A stretch of 64,000 nucleotides of DNA from Candidatus Nomurabacteria bacterium (lineage in GTDB: Bacteria > Patescibacteriota > Minisyncoccia > Phycocordibacterales > UBA918), in NCBI GenBank assembly GCA_023898565.1, contig CP060228.1:840930-904929 (forward strand). Direction: 5' to 3'. The position numbers and the translations under genes are program-made. Shown one piece after another: positions 5,143 to 44,580 of the stretch (position 1 is its first letter; each line of letters opens with the position of its first letter). Below the pieces are notes generated by a model that saw only the letters and a list, made by a program, of their open reading frames with translations, was not told the origin of the DNA and searched no databases.

Positions 5143-5215
5143 GGGCCATTAGCTCATCCGGTAGAGCGCATCCATGGCATGGATGAGGCGAGCGGTTCGA
5201 GTCCGCTATGGTCCA
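5143..5215 (+). tRNA. tRNA-Ala (anticodon GGC); CCA encoded at 5216–5218
   Basis: Manual fold: acceptor GGGCCAT/ATGGTCC with G3:U70, D-stem GCTC/GAGC, anticodon stem CATCC/GGATG, loop ATGGCAT, T-stem AGCGG/CCGCT with TTCGAGT loop, A73 then CCA. Confidence 0.85.
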
Positions 5216-6075
5216 CCAACTATCGACGTCCGCAAATCAGCGCTGTAAGTATCACTTTCTACATCTACCAGATTGTTGTCGATGAGGTGTCTAGCCTTGG
5301 TTTCCGCAAACGAGAAGCTGGTTTCAATCAATTCTAGCTCGTACAGAATTTCATCAAAGTATCCAGGTAAGATGGTCTTCCAGGTGAGCGGGAACGTAAC
5401 GTCAGACATCTTTTCAACAGGGCGCGTAAGTTCGTTGGTACAGTTGTGAGTGAGAGTGTTATACATACGCGGTGTCTCGTGGATATTGTTAATGTCAGCT
5501 GCAAGGAGATCAAATAATTGCCTAGCCTGTTGCGGAGTTGCTTTGGTTGGATACAAATACACTCGCTCGTTGCGGTGACCAGTACGCACACCAACCACGT
5601 CATCTTCAGAACCAACCACATAAATAATTTCAAACTGACGAAGTATGCCAAGAAGGGGAGAGAAGGTTTCGTCTGACTCACGACGCGTCTCAAGAGATAC
5701 CGCGATGTGTTCTCCGTCACTAAAGGTAAAGCTGAGGAATATGTGCGCCAGCCCTTCAAAATCAGCAAAGTGTGAAATAAACACATCGACCCCTGTCATT
5801 TCATCAAGATCAAAGGACCTGGTTGTGTACATCACATCGGCTGATGAAGCTGTTGTCCAAGAAAAGTCACGATAGTTCTCAACCGTGACACCACTACTTG
5901 TCGCTGAGTACACAATACGTGGAAGCTCCTCGTGACCCAATTCCCAATCCCGGTCATGCGATGGTTGGAATATGAGTAATAGAGACAGATAAAAAACGGT
6001 AATTACTGAAAGACATATCAGTACGTACCTAAATAATTTTTTCTTGCGTGACATGCTTTTAATTGTACACGACAC
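5206..6075 (-). CDS. Membrane-anchored protein, DUF4105-like (Lnb N-terminal periplasmic domain family)
   Basis: N-terminal TM helix. The motif YNTLTHNCTNEL resembles the YNxxxxNCT signature of DUF4105, recalled from memory. The stop codon overlaps the 3' end of tRNA-Ala(GGC) on the opposite strand. Confidence 0.4.
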   Translation of the reverse strand: MSCTIKSMSRKKKLFRYVLICLSVITVFYLSLLLIFQPSHDRDWELGHEELPRIVYSATSSGVTVENYRDFSWTTASSADVMYTTRSFDLDEMTGVDVFISHFADFEGLAHIFLSFTFSDGEHIAVSLETRRESDETFSPLLGILRQFEIIYVVGSEDDVVGVRTGHRNERVYLYPTKATPQQARQLFDLLAADINNIHETPRMYNTLTHNCTNELTRPVEKMSDVTFPLTWKTILPGYFDEILYELELIETSFSFAETKARHLIDNNLVDVESDTYSADLRTSIVGGP

Positions 6076-20661: not shown

Positions 20662-21132
20662 ATGCAATCAGACGAAGCTTGGTTCCAAGCCGCCGTAGTA
20701 TGTGCACAATCTGCACAGTGCAGCCGCGCAAAATGTGGCGCTATCATAGTGAAAGACAGCAAAATTATTGGTCAAGGCTATAATGCACCTCCACAAGACC
20801 AATCCTGCAATGCCATGTGTCACAAAAACCAGCGCAACTCACCAAAACCAAAGTCAGATCGTACCTGCTGCATGCACGCTGAATGGCGTGCCATTCTAGA
20901 CGCTTTACAGCAAGGACATGATGTTACTGGAACCACACTATACTTTGCTCGTGCTACCGACGAAGGAGAACTACTCTTTTCTGGACAACCGTACTGCACG
21001 GTATGCAGCCGTCTAGCACTTGATGTTGGCATTGCTTATTTTGGACTTTGGCACGAGAGCGGTCCTAAGCTGTATGACACAAAAACATACAATAAATTAT
21101 CGTACAAGTACCACGATCAAAAGACTATGTAG
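20662..21132 (+). CDS. Cytidine/deoxycytidylate deaminase-family zinc enzyme (dCMP deaminase/ComEB-like)
   Basis: CMHAE (H-A-E zinc ligand plus catalytic Glu) and the PYCTVC (PCxxC) motif. Confidence 0.7.
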   Translation: MQSDEAWFQAAVVCAQSAQCSRAKCGAIIVKDSKIIGQGYNAPPQDQSCNAMCHKNQRNSPKPKSDRTCCMHAEWRAILDALQQGHDVTGTTLYFARATDEGELLFSGQPYCTVCSRLALDVGIAYFGLWHESGPKLYDTKTYNKLSYKYHDQKTM

Positions 21133-21146
21133 GGTATACTATTTTC

Positions 21147-21554
21147 ATGACAACCACACCCTTTCGCTCCAGACCACGTGGCTGGCGTACGCTGCATACT
21201 CACAACGCCTACGCCGAAGCAATTGAATCAGGCGAGTACAATAATCCTTCTTTTTGCCACATATGTGAGGCGCCATCGGTAATTGAATTTGAACACTGGA
21301 GAATTATTCAAAATAAATTTCCTTATGATGAAATTGCTCGACGTCACGACATGATTGTTCCAAAAGTACACAAGAAGGAAGAAGACCTCACAGCAATTGA
21401 GCTGCAGGAGTTGCGGGAACTTAAAATCGGACACATCAATGACACGTACCAAATGTTGATGGAATCAGTCCCGAAAAATAAGTCTCTTCCGCAACACTTC
21501 CATCTACACCTCTTACAAATAAAAACACCAAATCAACCTTTGCAACCTGAGTAA
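21147..21554 (+). CDS. HIT-family (histidine triad) nucleotide hydrolase/transferase
   Basis: C-terminal histidine triad HFHLHLL (HxHxHxx) and an upstream CxxC. Confidence 0.6.
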   Translation: MTTTPFRSRPRGWRTLHTHNAYAEAIESGEYNNPSFCHICEAPSVIEFEHWRIIQNKFPYDEIARRHDMIVPKVHKKEEDLTAIELQELRELKIGHINDTYQMLMESVPKNKSLPQHFHLHLLQIKTPNQPLQPE

Positions 21555-22496: not shown

Positions 22497-22745
22497 ATGT
22501 CAGAAGAAAAAACGGAGAAAATCGAGGACATGAACGTCATGGCAGCACCCGAAAAATTAATTCCAAAACTCGTCACAAACATTAATTTTAGGAAAACCAA
22601 CGAAGGCGGGATTGTCATGAGCCTTTTTACGCAACCTCCTGAAGAGAAGGCGCCGGCTGTCTTGCTCGAAACTGTCTATCTTGAGAGAAGCCACGCGCGC
22701 AGAGTTATTGAAGTATTAACTAAAGTGGAAGCTGAAAATGAATAA
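22497..22745 (+). CDS. Small protein, divergent DUF3467-like
   Basis: C-terminal ...VYLERSHARRVIEVLTKVE parallels the DUF3467 C-terminal helix of the 19718–20020 protein. Confidence 0.35.
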   Translation: MSEEKTEKIEDMNVMAAPEKLIPKLVTNINFRKTNEGGIVMSLFTQPPEEKAPAVLLETVYLERSHARRVIEVLTKVEAENE

Positions 22746-22968
22746 TCTCCTCATTCCATTCAACAACCCAACCTCACACTCTACCTACCTCACCGCAGAG
22801 GTGGTAACTCACTGTACGGACACATATACTGAGTTTGATTTCACAACAAGAGCCATCATCGACAAACACCCCATCGACATTCTTAATGATTTCTACGCCG
22901 ACACTACCAACATCATTGAACGTAGTCTCATTGAATCAAAAAATAAGTATCCTGAGCTGGTAGCCTAA
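22738..22968 (+). CDS. Hypothetical small protein (76 aa); start overlaps the upstream stop (ATGAATAA coupling)
   Basis: ORF in an operon-like array; no recognised domain. Confidence 0.3.
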   Translation: MNNLLIPFNNPTSHSTYLTAEVVTHCTDTYTEFDFTTRAIIDKHPIDILNDFYADTTNIIERSLIESKNKYPELVA

Positions 22969-22980
22969 CAAACATTTGGT

Positions 22981-23331
22981 ATGGATCCTGAATTGAAGAA
23001 AATGGTAGAACGACTCATTTCCCAAACCGAACGCTGGAAAGACGAGATTGTTACGCTAACAACACAATACAACTCAGCTATTGAGAAGGTGCACGATATT
23101 CAAAAGGAACTCGCGGAAAAGCGAGACGAACTTAACAAAAAGAAAAACTCTTGGTGGTACCAGCTTCTTATTAACTACAAACCAATTATTAGCTTTGCAT
23201 TTGGTGTTTTTATTGTAGCGCTTGCAGTAATTGCTGTAGATAAATACACGAGCCGTAACATTTCACTATTTCATGGCGATTCAGGTGTTTCCATTTCAAA
23301 CACAGCCAGCAGCACCAAGCTTGAGTCCTAA
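22981..23331 (+). CDS. Hypothetical coiled-coil protein with one TM helix
   Basis: Heptad-like N-terminal half, then a hydrophobic segment ISFAFGVFIVALAVIAV. Confidence 0.35.
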   Translation: MDPELKKMVERLISQTERWKDEIVTLTTQYNSAIEKVHDIQKELAEKRDELNKKKNSWWYQLLINYKPIISFAFGVFIVALAVIAVDKYTSRNISLFHGDSGVSISNTASSTKLES

Positions 23332-23347
23332 CGCTTAAAAGGGAGCA

Positions 23348-23560
23348 GTGTTAAAGTTTTCCTTCAAGTTAGACTCGGATGATTCACTGCTCCTTGGGTA
23401 CAGCAAAAAGTCGCTGCCTCAACAGCGAGAAAAGCTTGCTGCAGAATTTCTCGCGGCGTGTGATATTGAGTTTTATCCTGATGAAGGGCGCGGCGAAGAG
23501 GACTACCACCTCGTTCTTCGAGATGGCGGAACAGTGGCCAAGCTCAAAGTCAAAGCCTGA
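23348..23560 (+). CDS. Hypothetical small protein (GTG start)
   Basis: RBS AAAAGGGAG 6 nt upstream of GTG 23348. Confidence 0.3.
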   Translation: MLKFSFKLDSDDSLLLGYSKKSLPQQREKLAAEFLAACDIEFYPDEGRGEEDYHLVLRDGGTVAKLKVKA

Positions 23561-23567
23561 TCAAGGT

Positions 23568-23600
23568 AACCTCTCAGCATAGCTGCGAGGTTTTTCATTC
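23568..23600 (+). terminator. Intrinsic terminator (nested hairpin) ending the small-ORF array
   Basis: AACCTC-t-CAGC-ata-GCTG-c-GAGGTTTTTTCATTCTTTG. Confidence 0.6.
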
Positions 23601-23663
23601 TTTGACTATTGCAAAAATAATGGCAAAATGACCATTATATTACTTGGGTAAATAGGGAACGTT

Positions 23664-26492
23664 ATGAATAAACGATTTAATCACAAAACTATCGAGAAAA
23701 AGTGGCAAGACACCTGGAAGGAGAGTGGTATCTATAAAACCACCGATAACAGCACAAAACCTAAAACGTACGTGCTGGATATGTTCCCGTACCCGTCAGG
23801 CGAAGGCTTGCATGTCGGACACCCTAAGGGCTATATCGCGACCGACATCTACTCACGCTTCAAGCGCATGACTGGCCACGAAGTACTCCACCCGATGGGT
23901 TGGGATGCCTTTGGCTTGCCGGCAGAAAACTTCGCTATCAAGCACAAAGTGCACCCAAGCGCTGCAGTAGCGAAAAATGTGGCACGCTTTAAAGAACAAC
24001 TTGAAGTGCTCGGCTTTGACTATGACTGGTCACGCGAAATCAACACCACCGACCCAAACTACTACAAGTGGACACAGTGGATTTTTATCCAACTTTACAA
24101 GAAAGGCTTGGCCTACGAGAGCAATGAACCTATCAACTGGTGCCCAGGCTGCCAGACTGGCTTAGCAAATGAAGACTTAAATGCCGACGGCACCTGTGAA
24201 CGCTGTGATAGCGTCGTCGAAAAGAAGCCAATGCGTCAATGGGTGCTTAAAATTCGTGAGTACGCCGACCGCATGCTCGCAGACCTCGACACCCTCAATT
24301 GGCCAGAACATATCAAAGAGGCACAGCGCAATTGGATTGGCAAAAGCGAAGGAGCCGAGATTGATTTTACACTTTCAACTGGAGACACAGTGACTGTTTT
24401 CACGACACGTCCTGATACACTTTTTGGCGCTACGTACATGGTACTTGCACCAGAACACGAGCTGGTTTTTAAGCATCACGAGACTATCAGCAACTGGAAT
24501 GAGGTAGCAGCGTATGTAAAAGAAGCTGCAAACAAAAAAGAAATGGACCGCCTCGACGACACTAAGGAGAAGACCGGAGTGAAGCTTGAAGGTATTACTG
24601 CAACCAATCCAGCAACCGGTGAGGAGATTCCAGTCTATATTGCAGATTACGTACTTGCTTCGTACGGCACCGGCGCCATTATGGCTGTACCAGCTCATGA
24701 TGAACGTGACTTCGCGTTTGCGAAGAAGTTTGGGATTGAAGTTAGGCCAGTAGTCGGAAAAATTTTCAATCAATTTAAGAACGTTGAAGTGCATCGTCGT
24801 GGCGTATATGGGCTTATCACAAATGAGAATGGCGAGTATTTACTTCAGTATTTTAGAAACAAAAACTTTTATTGGTTGCCTGGCGGAGGTGTTGAAGGTG
24901 ACGAGTCTGAAGAAGACTGCCTAAAGCGAGAAATGGCTGAAGAAAGCGGTTTTGCATCATTTTCTACAGCCAAGAAAGTTGCAACTGTATTCTACGATCA
25001 CAATTCACGCAAAGATGGTAAGAGCGCTCGAAATAAAACGACCGTCTATCGTGCAACTGTTTCTACATCAGAGCAGGGCCATGTCTCACTTACTGATGAT
25101 GAAATTGCGGACGGCTTAGAATTAGTTTGGGTCGCTCCAGAGAAGCTAAATAAAACACTTGATGCTGGAGAAGCTTCACGTTCAGAGTTACTGAAGTATC
25201 TCATTAAATTTGATAGTGCCACTGCAAAACCAGAATGTGGCGCACTTCTTAACTCCGGCGAATTTGACGGCATGACCTCAGAGGAAGCGAAAGTCGCTAT
25301 TACTGAAAAAGTTGGTGGGCGACTTACTTCAACCTATAAAATTAAAGATTGGGTCTTTAGTCGTCAGCGCTACTGGGGCGAGCCAATTCCAATTGTGCAC
25401 TGTGATACCTGTGGAGCGGTGCCAGTGCCAGAAGAGCAGCTACCGGTGACGTTGCCGGACGTGGAGCAGTATGAGCCGGCCGGCGACGGCCAGAGTCCGC
25501 TTGCGAATATTTCGGATTGGGTGAACACCACATGTCCAGCGTGTGGCGGAGCCGGCCGGCGCGAGACCAACACCATGCCACAATGGGCAGGTTCTTCATG
25601 GTACTACCTCCGCTACATGGATCCACAAAATAACGACGCATTAGTTTCGAAAGAAAACGAACAATACTGGGCACCAGTCGATGTCTACGTAGGCGGTGAT
25701 CACGCAGTGCGTCATCTTATTTATGCGCGCTTCTGGCACAAATTCCTCTACGACATCGATGTTGTTTCTACCATCGAACCATTCCAGCGACTTGAGTTTC
25801 TTGGCTTCATCTTGGCGGAAGACGGCCGCAAGATGAGTAAACGTTGGGGAAATGTAATCAACCCGGATGACGTAGTAGCTATTGTGGGTGCGGACACCCT
25901 CCGTATCTATGAAATGTTCATGGGACCTTTTGAAAACACCATCGCCTGGAGCCAGGACGGCCTCGCGGGCGCAAGACGCTTCCTAGAGCGCCTCAATGGC
26001 CTTAGCGAGCACATTGGTGATGAACCTAAGGAAACTACTTCATTACTTCACAAAACTATTAAAAAAGTGACTGAGGACATTGAAGGCTTTAAGTTCAACA
26101 CTGCTATCAGCGCCATGATGATTTTCCTCAATCAGGCTGAGAAAACAGGCATCAGCAAAGAAAGTTACGAGACGTTCCTCAAGCTCCTCGCGCCATTCGC
26201 ACCACACATTACCGAAGAACTGTGGCACGAAGCAGGGAAGAGTGACAGCGTACACACCGGCATATTCCCAGTATTTGACGCATCGCTTGCGAAAGACGAT
26301 GTGGTTGTAATCGGCGTACAGTTTAACGGCAAGTCGCGCGGACAAATCGAAATCGCTCCCGACGCCACCGAAGCCGATGCTCTCGAGACCCTCAAAAGAG
26401 ACGAATCACTCGCCAAGCGAATTGACGGAAAAGAGATAAAAAAAGTCATTTACGTACCAGGCAGAATCCTTAATATTATCGTTCAAGAATAG
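23664..26492 (+). CDS. leuS: Leucyl-tRNA synthetase carrying an inserted Nudix hydrolase module of about 160 aa (nt ~24762–25239)
   Basis: Class I HIGH-type catalytic core (PYPSGEGLHVGHPKGY), CP1 editing region (TTRPDT...AHDERDF) and KMSKR-region homology. A complete Nudix box GGVEGDESEEDCLKREMAEESGF sits between the editing domain and the Leu-specific/catalytic continuation (LNSGEFDG...). Confidence 0.9.
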   Translation: MNKRFNHKTIEKKWQDTWKESGIYKTTDNSTKPKTYVLDMFPYPSGEGLHVGHPKGYIATDIYSRFKRMTGHEVLHPMGWDAFGLPAENFAIKHKVHPSAAVAKNVARFKEQLEVLGFDYDWSREINTTDPNYYKWTQWIFIQLYKKGLAYESNEPINWCPGCQTGLANEDLNADGTCERCDSVVEKKPMRQWVLKIREYADRMLADLDTLNWPEHIKEAQRNWIGKSEGAEIDFTLSTGDTVTVFTTRPDTLFGATYMVLAPEHELVFKHHETISNWNEVAAYVKEAANKKEMDRLDDTKEKTGVKLEGITATNPATGEEIPVYIADYVLASYGTGAIMAVPAHDERDFAFAKKFGIEVRPVVGKIFNQFKNVEVHRRGVYGLITNENGEYLLQYFRNKNFYWLPGGGVEGDESEEDCLKREMAEESGFASFSTAKKVATVFYDHNSRKDGKSARNKTTVYRATVSTSEQGHVSLTDDEIADGLELVWVAPEKLNKTLDAGEASRSELLKYLIKFDSATAKPECGALLNSGEFDGMTSEEAKVAITEKVGGRLTSTYKIKDWVFSRQRYWGEPIPIVHCDTCGAVPVPEEQLPVTLPDVEQYEPAGDGQSPLANISDWVNTTCPACGGAGRRETNTMPQWAGSSWYYLRYMDPQNNDALVSKENEQYWAPVDVYVGGDHAVRHLIYARFWHKFLYDIDVVSTIEPFQRLEFLGFILAEDGRKMSKRWGNVINPDDVVAIVGADTLRIYEMFMGPFENTIAWSQDGLAGARRFLERLNGLSEHIGDEPKETTSLLHKTIKKVTEDIEGFKFNTAISAMMIFLNQAEKTGISKESYETFLKLLAPFAPHITEELWHEAGKSDSVHTGIFPVFDASLAKDDVVVIGVQFNGKSRGQIEIAPDATEADALETLKRDESLAKRIDGKEIKKVIYVPGRILNIIVQE

Positions 26493-26583: not shown

Positions 26584-27609
26584 ATGATTTCATTTAAACC
26601 GAAACAAATTAGTAAGACCTTGCTAGAGGTTCTTCCTGAACGTGCCCGTGACGTGCTTGAAAAGCGCTACGGCCTTGGTAAAGACGGTGAAACTTTCACT
26701 CTTGAAGCCATTGGTCAGTCGTACGGGATTACTCGTGAGCGTGTACGCCAAATTGAGAACTACGGCATTCAGTCAATCCAGAAGTCCGATGCTTATAAGA
26801 AGCATTATGAGCTGTTTATTGAACTCCAAAAGCTCATCGATCAGCTCGGCGGCGGTCTCATTGCCGAACACGTGCTTCTTGATGAACTCTCAAGCGACCC
26901 AGCCACTCGCAATCATCTGTACTTCCTTTTGGTGGTAGGCGATCCATTCTACAAGAGTAAGGAAAATCCACAGTACGCCCATCGTTGGTTTACTGAGCGG
27001 AAAATTGCTGACAACGTAGAGAAGGCACTGCAAGCAGTCTATAAGAGCCTCAACCGTGACGAGCTCGTGAGCGAACACGAAATTGTTAACCGCTTTCGCA
27101 CAGAACTAGCAGAAATCGCTGCCGACCACAATGAAGAAGTGCTTAAACGCTGGCTCTCAATCTCAAAGCAGATTGGCCGCAATCCACTTGGCGACTGGGG
27201 TCCAGCGGATAGCCCAAATATTCGCGTAAAAGGAATCCGAGACTACGCGTACCTTGCGGTAAAGCGCCATGGCTCACCGATGCATTTCCGTGAAGTTGCA
27301 GAAGCAATTCAAGAACTCTTCGGCCACAAGGCCCATATTGCCACCACTCACAACGAACTCATCAAAGATGCGCGTTTCGTACTCGTAGGTCGCGGTCTTT
27401 ACGCACTTACTGAATGGGGGTACACAGCAGGCGTTGTTAAAGACGTACTCCGTGAGATTCTCGAGGCAGAAGGCCCTCTCTCGCGAGAAGAAATCATCGA
27501 CAAAGTGCGCAAGGAGCGATACGTGAAAGACAACACTATCCTCGTCAATCTTCAAGACACAAACCTCTTTAAGAAGCTCGCTAACGGCACATACACACTC
27601 GCTGAGTAG
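26584..27609 (+). CDS. DNA-binding protein: N-terminal sigma-70 region-4-like HTH plus C-terminal HARE-HTH (RpoE-delta N-terminal-like winged helix)
   Basis: ERARDVLEKRYGLGKDGETFTLEAIGQSYGITRERVRQIE resembles sigma region 4.2. C-terminal ...SPMHFREVAEAIQELFG...FVLVGRGLYALTEWGY is the HARE-HTH hallmark. Confidence 0.55.
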   Translation: MISFKPKQISKTLLEVLPERARDVLEKRYGLGKDGETFTLEAIGQSYGITRERVRQIENYGIQSIQKSDAYKKHYELFIELQKLIDQLGGGLIAEHVLLDELSSDPATRNHLYFLLVVGDPFYKSKENPQYAHRWFTERKIADNVEKALQAVYKSLNRDELVSEHEIVNRFRTELAEIAADHNEEVLKRWLSISKQIGRNPLGDWGPADSPNIRVKGIRDYAYLAVKRHGSPMHFREVAEAIQELFGHKAHIATTHNELIKDARFVLVGRGLYALTEWGYTAGVVKDVLREILEAEGPLSREEIIDKVRKERYVKDNTILVNLQDTNLFKKLANGTYTLAE

Positions 27610-42636: not shown

Positions 42637-44580
42637 ATGATGACGGGAAACGACATTCGTAAAAAATATCTAGATTTTATGGCCGCCAAAGGCCACGCTG
42701 TTGTGCCGTCTTCAGCCTTGGTGCCAGACAACGACCCAACCACACTCTTCACCGGAAGTGGTATGCAGCCAATGGTGCCGTATTTGCTTGGCGAAACGCA
42801 CCCAAAGGGCGTTCGCATTGCCGACTCACAGAAGTGTTTCCGCGCTGAAGATATCGAAGAAGTGGGTGACAATCGTCACACTACGTTCTTTGAGATGCTC
42901 GGCAACTGGTCATTTGGTGATTACTTTAAAGAAGAACAAATCGACTGGATGTTTACGTTCTTAGTAGACGAACTCGGTCTCGACCCAAATAAGCTCTACA
43001 TCACAGCCTTTGGCGGCGATGAAGCCAGTGGCGTACCAATCGACGACGAAGCACCAAAGCACTGGCAGCGTCTGTTTGGCGAAAAAGGAATTGATGCACG
43101 GGTAGCACACATGGGTAGCGAAGAAGATGGCTATAAGCGCGGCATGAAAGAAGGGGAGCGGATTTTCTACTACAACGCCAAGAAAAACTGGTGGAGCCGA
43201 GCTGGCGTGCCGCAAAATATGCCCGTTGGTGAACCAGGGGGTCCTGACTCTGAGATGTTTTATGATTTCGGTACCGAACACGACCCGAAGTGGGGCGAAC
43301 ACTGCCACCCAAACTGTGACTGTGGTCGCTTCATGGAAATCGGCAACAACGTCTTCATGCAGTACATCAAGAAGGGTGAAGGGGAGTTTGAAGAACTCAA
43401 GAACCGCAACATCGACTTTGGTGGTGGACTTGAACGTATTGCTGCCGCCGTAAACAACGAACCTGACGTCTTTAAGATCGATCTCCTCTGGAACGTCATT
43501 ACCCAAATTCAGAAACTTTCCGGAAAGTTCTACATCGATAATGAGGAGGCGTTTCGGGTGATTGCCGACCATATCCGTGGCGCAGTGTTTATGATTGGTG
43601 ACGGTGTGTTCCCAAGCAACAGTGAGCAGGGGTACTTTGTACGCCGCCTCTTGCGTCGTGCGGTACGATACGCTGACCAGCTCGGTATTCCAGCTGGCGA
43701 ATTTAAGAACCTAGCTGAAAGTGTCATTACTACCTACGAAGCTCACTACACCAATCTCGGCGAGAAGCGTGACGTTATTAAGGAAGCAATTGAGAAAGAA
43801 GAAGCGCAATTCCGTAAGACACTGGAAAACGGCCTGAAGCAATTCAATAAAATTGAACTCCAAGTACACCTCAGCAAAGAAGAACTACAGCAAGCCAAAG
43901 CAACCGGCAAGATTGAAGGGGCAAAGACCAGAAAGGCCATTGGCGCAAAAAATGCCTTTGATCTCTTTACTACGTTCGGATTCCCGATTGAGCTCACTGA
44001 AGAAATCGCGTCTGAAAAAGGCCTCGTGGTAGATCGCCTTGGCTTTGAAAAGCTCATGACTGAACATCGCGAAAAGTCTCGCGCTGGCGCAGAGCAGAAA
44101 TTTAAGGGTGGGCTAGCCGACAACTCAGAAAAGGTAGTACAGTATCACACAGCAACACACCTGATGCTCGCAGCGCTTCGCGAGATTCTCGGCACGCACG
44201 TCCATCAGGCCGGTTCAAACATTACTGGCGAACGACTCCGCTACGACTTCACGCACGGAGAAAAAGTAGCGCGAGAAACGCTAGATAAGGTAGAAGCTTG
44301 GGTCAACCACGCCATTAAGACCGGGGGAGTGGTGACGATTGAAACCATGAGCAAAGACGCTGCCGAGCAAGACCCAGCCATCGAAGGCAGCTTCTGGGAT
44401 CGGTATCCAGACGAAGTAAAGGTCTACGTCATGACCGGCAATGACGGCACCATCTTCTCAAAAGAGCTTTGTGGAGGACCGCACGTCGAGAAGCTTGAAG
44501 ATATTGAAGGCACTTTCAAAATCACTAAGGAAGAATCGTCTTCTGCTGGTGTACGCCGCATTAAGGCCGTTCTTCAGTAG
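42637..44580 (+). CDS. alaS: Alanyl-tRNA synthetase, short form (catalytic, tRNA-recognition and editing domains; no C-Ala/DHHA1 domain)
   Basis: N-terminal KKYLDFMAAKGHAVVPSSALVP..DPT.LFT..GM, HTTFFEMLGNWSFGDYFK, and editing-domain HTATHLM...CGGPHV motifs. It is 647 aa against about 870. Confidence 0.85.
   Translation: MMTGNDIRKKYLDFMAAKGHAVVPSSALVPDNDPTTLFTGSGMQPMVPYLLGETHPKGVRIADSQKCFRAEDIEEVGDNRHTTFFEMLGNWSFGDYFKEEQIDWMFTFLVDELGLDPNKLYITAFGGDEASGVPIDDEAPKHWQRLFGEKGIDARVAHMGSEEDGYKRGMKEGERIFYYNAKKNWWSRAGVPQNMPVGEPGGPDSEMFYDFGTEHDPKWGEHCHPNCDCGRFMEIGNNVFMQYIKKGEGEFEELKNRNIDFGGGLERIAAAVNNEPDVFKIDLLWNVITQIQKLSGKFYIDNEEAFRVIADHIRGAVFMIGDGVFPSNSEQGYFVRRLLRRAVRYADQLGIPAGEFKNLAESVITTYEAHYTNLGEKRDVIKEAIEKEEAQFRKTLENGLKQFNKIELQVHLSKEELQQAKATGKIEGAKTRKAIGAKNAFDLFTTFGFPIELTEEIASEKGLVVDRLGFEKLMTEHREKSRAGAEQKFKGGLADNSEKVVQYHTATHLMLAALREILGTHVHQAGSNITGERLRYDFTHGEKVARETLDKVEAWVNHAIKTGGVVTIETMSKDAAEQDPAIEGSFWDRYPDEVKVYVMTGNDGTIFSKELCGGPHVEKLEDIEGTFKITKEESSSAGVRRIKAVLQ

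Follow-up and report, generated by a model that had tools for sequence, protein, structure and literature searches.

A Nudix domain nested within the CP1 editing domain of leucyl-tRNA synthetase in Paceibacteria

The leucyl-tRNA synthetase (LeuRS) encoded in the 64-kb stretch of DNA analysed here, which we call the window, contains a Nudix domain nested within its CP1 editing domain. In the reading that we favour, at roughly even odds (about 0.5), the protein is bifunctional: a competent LeuRS would serve as the scaffold for a putative, independent accessory Nudix enzyme that comes in exchangeable cassettes. The coordinates of the gene and its parts are listed in Table 1.

Table 1. Parts of the leuS gene in the window, with positions, strand and residues
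Feature	Position (nt)	Strand	Residues (aa)	Remarks
leuS, bacterial-type leucyl-tRNA synthetase, nested Nudix	23664..26492	+		942 aa; without leucine-specific domain
Synthetic (Rossmann) body, N-terminal half	23664..24278	+	1-205	PF00133 and PF09334 matches
HIGH motif = HVGH	23811-23822	+	50-53	
CP1 editing domain, first part	24327..24758	+	222-365	
T-rich editing motif TTRPDT	24402-24419	+	247-252	CP1 first part
GTG and HDERD aspartate			335-337; D346	Both in CP1 first part
Nudix cassette, nested	24759..25226	+	366-521	Cassette type 'T3'
Nudix box GGVEGDESEEDCLKREMAEESGF	24885..24953	+	408-430	Box read directly from sequence
CP1 editing domain, last part, and beta-linker to body	25227..25358	+	522-565	…LLNSGEFDGM…KDWVFSRQRYWGEPIP
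Synthetic body C-terminal half, anticodon-binding domain and C-terminal domain	25359..26489	+		PF00133 and PF08264; 1h3n alignment
KMSKS motif = KMSKR	25830-25844	+	723-727	

The host enzyme is of the same type as the known bacterial LeuRS (T. thermophilus 1h3n, E. coli and M. mobile). Its length is that given in the first-pass annotation, and it matches TIGR00396, the equivalog model of bacterial LeuRS, with 1000 bits against a cut-off of 548.4, in two stretches with the insert between them. In an 86-sequence alignment, the residues of the HIGH motif (H50, V51, G52 and H53), those of the KMSKS motif (K723, M724, S725, K726 and R727) and, within the editing domain (PF13603 match, E = 1.3e-60), TTRPDT, GTG and D346 are all invariant; both the synthetic and the editing motifs are intact. 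Most, but not all, bacterial LeuRS have a leucine-specific domain before KMSKS. In the alignment with T. thermophilus LeuRS, query residues 718-724 cover residues 579-638, and the leucine-specific domain is absent from the window LeuRS, as it is from M. mobile LeuRS and from the insert-less relatives, which are about 790-826 aa long. Since that domain sits elsewhere and is absent, the extra residues are not an expansion of it, an alternative that had been raised in advance.

The extra residues form a complete canonical Nudix domain, as had been proposed. Residues 377-504 match Pfam NUDIX (PF00293) with 47.8 bits (gathering cut-off, 21.1; E = 1.9e-12 for the whole protein), the excised insert alone matches it with 52.1 bits (E = 9e-14), and the box, GGVEGDESEEDCLKREMAEESGF, satisfies the pattern Gx5Ex7REUxEExGU. 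A six-frame translation of the window contains this single Nudix box, and the leuS ORF is the sole match there to an HMM made from Nudix inserts. In structure models, the insert folds with confidence as an autonomous alpha/beta/alpha sandwich, with the box on a loop-helix-loop (helix 416-428), and it stands out as a lobe of its own from the tip of a CP1 beta-hairpin; these models bear out an independent lobe, which had been named as a point to check. The predicted catalytic and metal-ligand glutamates are E423, E426 and E427. Together with the box glycine, they are conserved at 90% or more in the 86-sequence alignment and are the only columns that are invariant across all cassette types. Judged from the canonical box and these residues, the cassette is predicted to be catalytically competent.

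Among free-standing Nudix proteins, the closest structure to the insert is 2azw, an uncharacterised MutT/Nudix protein of E. faecalis; other known Nudix systems near it are Ndx1 Ap6A hydrolase, NudI, NudF and Ap4A hydrolases. Its identity to any solved Nudix structure is 18-24% and, unlike the free-standing hydrolases, it is nested within another domain. A search of 1.84 billion representative sequences with the insert gave almost only free-standing Nudix proteins, and the best homologues of the window's type are 30-39% identical to it; no close free-standing counterpart was found among these representatives. Few LeuRS appeared in this search because the sequences that stand for LeuRS clusters at 50% identity carry other cassettes.

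The location of the insert was described only in part correctly by the first-pass annotation. Its limits, given as 24762-25239, are essentially the same as those in Table 1, and an extra domain is indeed present in LeuRS. It is, however, nested within CP1 and not placed between this domain and the synthetase body, and the PF13603 editing-domain profile is interrupted at position 146 of 185. In the T. thermophilus alignment, query residue 365 corresponds to residue 363 and query residue 522 to residue 377, so that a domain of about 156 aa takes the place of the 13-aa hairpin loop of T. thermophilus LeuRS. When CP1 of the AF2 model is superposed on the editing domain of S. pneumoniae (4k47), 175 of 183 residues fit at 1.2 A. 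The junctions read VVGK/IFNQ and PECG/ALLNSGEF. Composition changes along the gene: GC3 is 0.54-0.69 over the N-terminal half of the synthetic body, breaks at the CP1 borders, and is 0.32 in the insert versus 0.53 in the rest of leuS. The block of low GC3 extends to about aa 560, and the unit consisting of CP1 and Nudix that is swapped between genes (see below) ends near aa 565.

This architecture is lineage-wide in Paceibacteria/Parcubacteria. A chimeric assembly had been named as a possible source of error; an independent ENA contig (P0002) encodes a 942-aa protein that is 99% identical to the window LeuRS, and an insert of 137-166 aa occupies the same CP1 loop in 79 of the 80 best species-representative genomes, which excludes such a chimera. 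A survey of relatives, as had been suggested, thus finds the insertion again, and it is not a peculiarity of one genome. About one third of the related LeuRS are without the domain; among 49 related loci sampled via the neighbouring gene, 16 have a loop of only 6-41 aa and no Nudix. Some relatives contain tandem Nudix domains, and in some a second CP1 loop, located 2-3 residues before TTRPDT, holds a Ham1/ITPase domain or an alpha/beta serine hydrolase. In a few species, the T-rich editing motif is lost or degenerate and the canonical Nudix box is kept. A search of 8 million full-text papers found no description of the architecture, in agreement with the statement of the annotation that it was aware of none, and LeuRS with a nested Nudix domain is apparently undescribed. 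NCBIfam contains no model for such a protein, and databases call these proteins simply 'leucine--tRNA ligase'.

Could the insert be a functionless passenger, selfish or neutral in the manner of an intein, or an assembly artefact? Its low GC3 and the differing presence and absence of the domain among close relatives would suit this explanation, which we nevertheless consider hardly credible. In pairs that share a cassette type, are vertically inherited and have unsaturated dS, dN/dS of the insert versus the core is 0.038 versus 0.063, 0.063 versus 0.082, 0.098 versus 0.081, 0.096 versus 0.103 and 0.057 versus 0.071. The cassettes are under purifying selection (dN/dS 0.04-0.10), with a constraint like that of the essential LeuRS core. 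In addition, the catalytic residues are invariant, the domain is confidently predicted to fold by itself, the reading frame is uninterrupted, and the architecture is common to independent assemblies and many genomes. The LeuRS protein has no Pfam matches to Hint or endonuclease domains, the two junctions carry no intein signature, and short flanking repeats occur only at chance level; a site-specific mobile element or intein was rejected on these grounds. The passenger or artefact explanation is largely refuted by purifying selection together with the distribution.

In contrast to known bacterial LeuRS, the window leuS is a mosaic in which CP1 and Nudix modules are exchangeable. There are at least seven major cassette types, which are 12-27% identical to that of the window. 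Pairs of genes with 84-93% core identity differ in the presence of the Nudix domain by a clean indel on DNA, and near-identical LeuRS carry Nudix types that are only 21-31% identical to each other. For example, in the pair P0004/P0012 the DNA flanks are about 98% identical, whereas identity falls to noise level over gene nucleotides 1077-1590 (aa ~360-530); the pair P0066/P0107 shows the same pattern. The DNA breakpoints between nearly identical leuS genes with different cassettes, or with none, are located at the borders of the Nudix domain. Larger units also move: blocks of CP1 plus Nudix that are 73-100% identical are found across bodies with 40-60% identity, and the opposite combination is also seen. 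Two units are swapped between leuS alleles and bodies: the Nudix cassette by itself and the complete block of CP1 and Nudix. Note that the loop state is stable in all six pairs with at least 96% backbone identity in an unbiased sample, and the turnover is therefore not rapid.

Several other sources of this diversity were tried and rejected. Fast divergence in place does not fit, since the insert and the core have about the same dN in vertical pairs, and the short loops are not Nudix remnants, as they would be if they were decayed domains. Displacement of the whole leuS gene was suggested by two classes of bodies beside a neighbouring gene that is 80-90% identical; it was rejected because that gene is ultra-conserved, and the real signal is mosaicism at the level of domains. 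Assembly chimeras are unlikely to be behind the swapped pairs, given that independent pairs, obtained with different assemblers and from species-representative genomes, have the same borders. A similar pattern is known from the target-recognition domains of HsdS in type I restriction systems, which are likewise old, internally conserved and mutually divergent middle modules that are swapped by recombination between conserved flanks. The analogy is one of evolutionary pattern only: protein and function are unrelated, and leuS is an essential housekeeping host. The HsdS loci are under diversifying or frequency-dependent selection.

In the favoured reading, the Nudix domain would be a pyrophosphohydrolase that caps a surface beta-hairpin of CP1 as a lobe of its own and leaves the LeuRS sites intact. 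As an accessory enzyme in its own right, it would most likely have a small nucleotide of the NTP, NDP-X or NpnN type as its substrate, probably in 'house-cleaning' of the nucleotide pool, a role that would suit tiny-genome organisms dependent on salvaged nucleotides. LeuRS, expressed constitutively, would be its scaffold and not a partner in its mechanism, and the CP1 loop a docking site across Paceibacteria that is either occupied by a Nudix domain of one of the old types, at least seven in number and each conserved in itself, or left as a short loop, with occasional replacement of alleles by recombination of the cassette or the whole block. We take the domain to be accessory and not required for LeuRS because of the 16 short-looped loci among 49, the presence/absence pairs and the finding that the loops are not remnants. 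Its independence of the editing pocket is suggested by the few species that have lost the T-rich motif and kept the box, and the house-cleaning theme by the Ham1/ITPase domain at the second CP1 loop and the tandem Nudix domains of relatives. Obligate coupling of Nudix to LeuRS appears unlikely because about one third of the relatives are without the domain, near-identical LeuRS carry types of 21-31% identity, and the weak best matches of the types point to differing Nudix sub-lineages.

Some observations do not sit easily with this reading. Against a mere scaffold role, the loop is occupied almost only by Nudix domains across so many species, and the window's type is without a close free-standing counterpart; both points could instead mean that the position in CP1 matters functionally. 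The alpha/beta serine hydrolase at the second site does not belong to a theme of nucleotide house-cleaning.

The first-pass annotation had suggested that the fusion clears a side-product of aminoacylation. In this explanation, the Nudix domain is a hydrolase of Ap4A or other ApnA, or of an adenylylated by-product, that disposes of these LeuRS products and would link aminoacylation either to clearance of its own side-product or to an alarmone signal. Ap4A is a possible substrate, and we consider the explanation as a whole rather unlikely. No Ap4A-hydrolase model or other substrate-specific model reaches its cut-off with the insert, its closest free-standing relatives or the other cassette types; the top match of the insert is NudI (25.9 bits against a cut-off of 95), and RppH-type models give about 17-22 bits at best (cut-offs, 116-241). 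Weak best matches of different cassette types point to different Nudix sub-lineages, and neither sequence models nor fold ranking separate substrate classes for the insert. The Ap4A/ApnA subfamily is marked by an aromatic residue (Tyr) about 16-18 residues after the box. In the window insert, Y444 lies at +14 and a His at +16, and in relatives of the same type Y/F is at +14 and H/Y at +16, a spacing that is not an exact fit to this rule.

A further point offered in the annotation, a HIT-family gene at 21147, is not upheld. The ORF concerned (21147-21554) has no Pfam match even at E <= 1, and its best PDB match, 3imi ('HIT family protein'), is weak (E = 0.92). The sequence HFHLHLL near its C-terminus fits HxHxHxx, although a seven-residue motif alone is weak evidence.

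Two known proteins resemble the fusion. NadM-Nudix (NMN adenylyltransferase/ADP-ribose pyrophosphatase) also joins a nucleotidyl-transferase-type Rossmann enzyme covalently to a Nudix domain, but there the two enzymes are joined end to end and have a defined metabolic logic, whereas the Nudix domain of LeuRS is nested in a loop; the PRK05379 NCBIfam models for it match relatives of the insert weakly, far below the cut-off. The family 'isoleucine--tRNA ligase, N-acetyltransferase domain-containing' (NF040702) is also a class Ia synthetase with an extra catalytic domain. It differs, as far as the model name indicates, in having a GNAT domain and another host enzyme, and it matches the window protein partially through the shared IleRS-like core.

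The position of the cassette, in the domain that binds the 3' end of tRNA, suggests another explanation: the Nudix domain might act on RNA ends at CP1, for example on a blocking or damaging group at the 3' CCA of tRNA(Leu) or on another RNA-linked nucleotide adduct (pyrophosphate, ADP-ribose or a cap-like group). CP1 and Nudix would then form an extended repair/editing module, and an arms race with toxins or phages would account for the diversity of cassettes. The second nested-hydrolase site close to TTRPDT would be in keeping with this, as would old conserved cassettes swapped together with CP1, in the manner of HsdS-type diversifying loci (an analogy from general knowledge). Several cassette types have RNA pyrophosphohydrolases, RppH and YtkD, as their best matches, although these matches are weak and far below the cut-offs. 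In addition, the cassette had no viral relatives in a single-domain scan of IMG/VR, some Nudix carriers have a degenerate T-rich motif, and the stable loop state at high backbone identity also speaks against an arms race. We consider this explanation improbable. In a broader version, which is by analogy and to which we likewise assign a low probability, CP1+Nudix would be a diversifying, exchangeable protection module that either detoxifies a nucleotide-type inhibitor or signal or repairs a blocked tRNA 3' end, under conflict-driven, frequency-dependent selection that would both preserve and reshuffle the set of old cassette types, as in restriction-specificity domains. This version also takes in the nested Ham1 or alpha/beta hydrolase beside the editing motif in some relatives.

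The Nudix domain might instead be a ligand sensor or structural element, with hydrolysis secondary or absent, that binds a nucleotide (such as ADP-ribose, Ap4A or ppGpp) and so adjusts LeuRS, or binds tRNA in lieu of the leucine-specific domain. The boxes of sensor Nudix domains are usually degenerate, whereas here no type, T2 included, departs from the three metal-ligand glutamates. Domain-less LeuRS alleles are common, and the Nudix domain is therefore not needed for tRNA binding; in particular, the insert-less relatives manage without the leucine-specific domain as well. Such a role is highly improbable in our view.

The finding places a complete second enzyme inside the proofreading domain of LeuRS, a textbook-conserved housekeeping synthetase, across one of the major branches of the candidate phyla radiation. 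It offers a concrete, testable tie between translation and nucleotide metabolism in organisms unable to make their own nucleotides, and the protection module, if it were true, would give an aminoacyl-tRNA synthetase a built-in defence or repair function of a new kind. The leuS gene can be regarded as a natural experiment in domain insertion and swapping, in which cassettes, CP1 blocks and empty loops occur on near-identical backbones; natural alleles with and without Nudix are ready biochemical controls, and the CP1 loop is a permissive site for LeuRS engineering. Why an essential gene should be so mosaic is a question that follows from it.

leuS encodes a LeuRS of the bacterial type (TIGR00396, 1000 bits, cut-off 548; E 5.6e-226 to T. 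thermophilus LeuRS, structure 1h3n) in which Pfam identifies a NUDIX domain (PF00293, 47.8 bits, gathering score 21.1; 52.1 bits when the segment is cut out alone). The Nudix box agrees with Gx5Ex7REUxEExGU in all defined positions, and the complete, embedded Nudix domain described in the first-pass annotation is thus borne out. Six-frame translation of the window yields no second box, and a search of the 64 kb with an HMM trained on Nudix sequences, 163 of them embedded and 115 free-standing, gives no further match. The HIGH, KMSKS, T-rich and GTG motifs and D346 are all present, and do not vary across an alignment of 86 sequences from relatives. The protein has a bifunctional architecture.

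Features of the window around and within leuS
Feature	Position (nt)	Strand	Residues (aa)	Remark
tRNA-Ala genes (TGC, GGC)	2880-2954, 5143-5218	+		near window start
Cytidine/deoxycytidylate deaminase	20662-21132	+		PF00383, E 7e-13; ~2.5 kb upstream of leuS
HIT-like candidate ORF	21147-21554	+		HFHLHLL close to C-terminus
Hypervariable region	22497-23663			directly upstream of leuS
Small ORFs in that region	22497-22745, 22981-23331			followed by spacer
leuS	23664-26492	+	1-942	single, uninterrupted ORF
HIGH motif			50-53	HVGH
Low-GC3 stretch	24288-25345		~209-560	ends fall on CP1 borders
Equivalent of second insertion site	~24375-24392		~238-243	within CP1
Editing T-rich motif			247-252	TTRPDT
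GTG motif			335-337
Conserved Asp			346	D346
Nudix cassette	24759-25226		366-521
NUDIX domain (Pfam)			377-504
Nudix box			408-430	GGVEGDESEEDCLKREMAEESGF
Site of missing leucine-specific domain	~25815-25835		718-724
KMSKS motif			723-727	KMSKR
Sigma-70 region 4/HARE-HTH protein	26584-27609	+		downstream of leuS
Alanyl-tRNA synthetase	42637-44580	+	1-647	short

In the alignment to 1h3n, residues 4-365 correspond to T. thermophilus 3-363 and the alignment restarts with residue 522 at 377, so that about 156 residues stand in place of a 13-residue loop. The first-pass annotation had placed them between the editing domain, CP1, and the synthetase body; however, the editing-domain profile PF13603 is split at position 146 of 185, and the insertion is therefore inside CP1, not behind it. 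Nor are the extra residues an expansion of the leucine-specific domain, which has a different position in this alignment and is absent from the protein, where seven residues cover T. thermophilus 579-638. The Mycoplasma mobile LeuRS is likewise reported to lack this domain; T. thermophilus has about 60 residues there, whereas the window's protein has few.

The insert certainly belongs to the Nudix fold. In an AF2 model of the full-length protein (pLDDT 85, pTM 0.75), residues 361-520 have pLDDT values of 82-94, the order of strands and helices is that of the Nudix sandwich, and the box lies on helix 416-428. The excised domain (residues 362-526) is predicted to fold alone (pLDDT 93.9, pTM 0.87), as expected of an independent lobe. 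According to these models, CP1 is intact and the Nudix domain is an additional lobe.

Of the 120 best protein clusters (Candidatus Paceibacteria and Kaiserbacteria are among the source names), about 80 have lengths of 920-970 aa, are 63-79% identical and contain PF00293, and about 40 are roughly 790-826 aa long and lack it. One relative, on an independent ENA contig, is 99% identical (P0002). In species-representative genomes, relatives are encoded at 403 loci (taxa including Nomura-, Adler-, Yonath-, Taylor-, Vogel-, Lloyd- and Moraniibacteria, Parcubacteria), and 79 of the best 80 have an insert of 137-166 aa at the same loop, a ranking biased toward carriers; a sample of 49 loci drawn without this bias, via the conserved gene downstream of leuS, comprises 33 carriers and 16 non-carriers. 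The LeuRS-Nudix architecture is thus genuine and old, and is a common feature of this class. A full-text literature search found no published description of it, in line with the novelty suggested at first pass. The window's alanyl-tRNA synthetase contains tRNA-synt_2c and tRNA_SAD only; nested enzymes are therefore not general to its aminoacyl-tRNA synthetases.

Purifying selection on the cassette is strong. For pairs of loci that share a type and have unsaturated dS, dN/dS of insert and core, respectively, is 0.038 and 0.063 (L032/L040), 0.063 and 0.082 (L057/L080), 0.098 and 0.081 (L065/L069), 0.096 and 0.103 (L051/L055), and 0.057 and 0.071 (L067/L072), with insert dN approximately equal to core dN. 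Being so constrained, the Nudix domain is functional, and its sequence indicates a catalytically intact module.

The 163 inserts fall into 27 clusters, seven of which have 6-40 members. The window's type has 17 (including P0002-P0008, P0010, P0011, P0013 and P0018), the closest being 60-63% identical to the window insert; other types show 12-27% identity. Over all types, no column is invariant except the glycine of the box and the three RExxEE glutamates; these glutamates are retained even in one type that has lost box Arg, first Glu and second Gly. A search of 1.84 billion representative proteins gave no close free-standing counterpart of the window's type; its best matches were Nudix proteins of about 170 aa with 30-39% identity. 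Curated NCBIfam cut-offs are reached neither by any cassette type nor by those of the nearest free-standing relatives that were tested (the tandem-Nudix protein P0129 passes via a separate RppH-like domain), and the weak top matches vary with type (RppH-like, MutT/NudG-like, YtkD-like).

These types are exchanged between nearly identical synthetases.

Closely related LeuRS proteins with different states of the insert
Pair	Core identity, N half/C half (%)	Inserts
P0004/P0012	97.3/97.1	31% identical
P0066/P0107	95.3/91.0	25% identical
P0048/P0050	89/95	21% identical
P0016/P0030	93/84	160 aa vs 35 aa
P0008/P0035	89/87	162 aa vs 19 aa

The DNA of the P0004 and P0012 contigs is about 98% identical over leuS and the next gene, and identity drops to noise level solely in gene nt 1077-1590 (residues ~360-530). 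The breakpoints in P0066/P0107 are at nt 1090-1554, and P0016/P0030 differ by a clean indel. No repeats flank the cassette. The short loops do not represent remnants of Nudix domains. In-place divergence could not have produced the type diversity while cores diverged by 15-25%, since insert and core dN are similar. At core identities of at least 87%, two carrier pairs share a type, seven differ, and four further pairs join a carrier and a non-carrier; at 84-87%, 39% share a type (chance expectation, 14%), and all six pairs of the unbiased sample with at least 96% identity have a common state. Thus inheritance is mostly vertical, with episodic replacement.

Larger blocks also move. In some pairs (L123/P0118-like) the CP1 and Nudix block (residues ~206-565) is 73-100% identical and the bodies 40-60%; in others (L078/L081-like) the bodies are 83-100% identical and the block 10-63%. 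Region-wise identities across 243 sequences are non-monotonic. In the window's leuS, GC3 is 0.54-0.69 over residues 1-208, 0.31-0.48 over 209-560 and 0.44-0.67 beyond (0.32 in the insert, 0.53 in the rest), and the low stretch corresponds to the block exchanged in relatives. In this clade, then, leuS is a mosaic whose modules are the body, CP1 and Nudix. A role in RNA-end repair or conflict, although quite improbable, would best account for the position within CP1 and for the shuffling of alleles.

In a few relatives, CP1 has a second site for nested domains, a loop 2-3 residues ahead of TTRPDT. Besides Nudix, P0104 and P0177 have a Ham1/ITPase (PF01725) there, with free-standing homologues 54-56% identical (one labelled Pacearchaeota), and P0063 an alpha/beta serine hydrolase (PF06821). 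Pfam detects tandem Nudix domains at the CP1 loop of P0009 (1107 aa; canonical boxes at aa 415 and 580) and P0219 (1141 aa; strict pattern matched once, at aa 413). Editing motifs are intact in 173 of 178 carriers. The T-rich motif is lost in three species (L054, L074 and L081), with replacements such as FSAHFE and FNSVPQ, and altered in L052; a canonical Nudix box is retained in all four. Such species may have lost editing activity.

Upstream of leuS, the ORF at 21147, proposed at first pass to be a HIT-family gene, matches no Pfam family at a threshold as loose as E <= 1, and the PDB sequence closest to it, a HIT protein, has E 0.92. It has a histidine-triad-like motif, and could be a highly divergent relative of HIT proteins or a protein of another kind. 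The neighbouring deaminase is a nucleotide-salvage enzyme. For the two small ORFs, no counterpart is detectable in any of 49 syntenic metagenome loci, and L001 and L002, a pair with 98% identity, have unrelated sequence between -300 and about -93 before leuS. The sigma-70 region 4/HARE-HTH gene is always 3' of leuS and unusually conserved, being 79-90% identical across loci where other neighbours (DUF8128, YceG, DUF5671) show 34-76%.

Because natural alleles without Nudix exist, the domain is dispensable for LeuRS as such. The first-pass proposal that it clears Ap4A in a coupling to LeuRS is possible but less likely: nothing specific favours it, and cassette diversity and dispensability disfavour an obligate link. 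The original observation stands, and its interpretation is supported in part. The Nudix domain would instead be a pyrophosphohydrolase that works as an accessory enzyme independent of LeuRS, probably in house-cleaning; this is consistent with the Ham1 inserts that occur alongside it and with the reliance of these bacteria on nucleotide salvage. LeuRS and Nudix are both known families; their modular exchange within leuS is unusual evolutionary behaviour that merits experimental follow-up.
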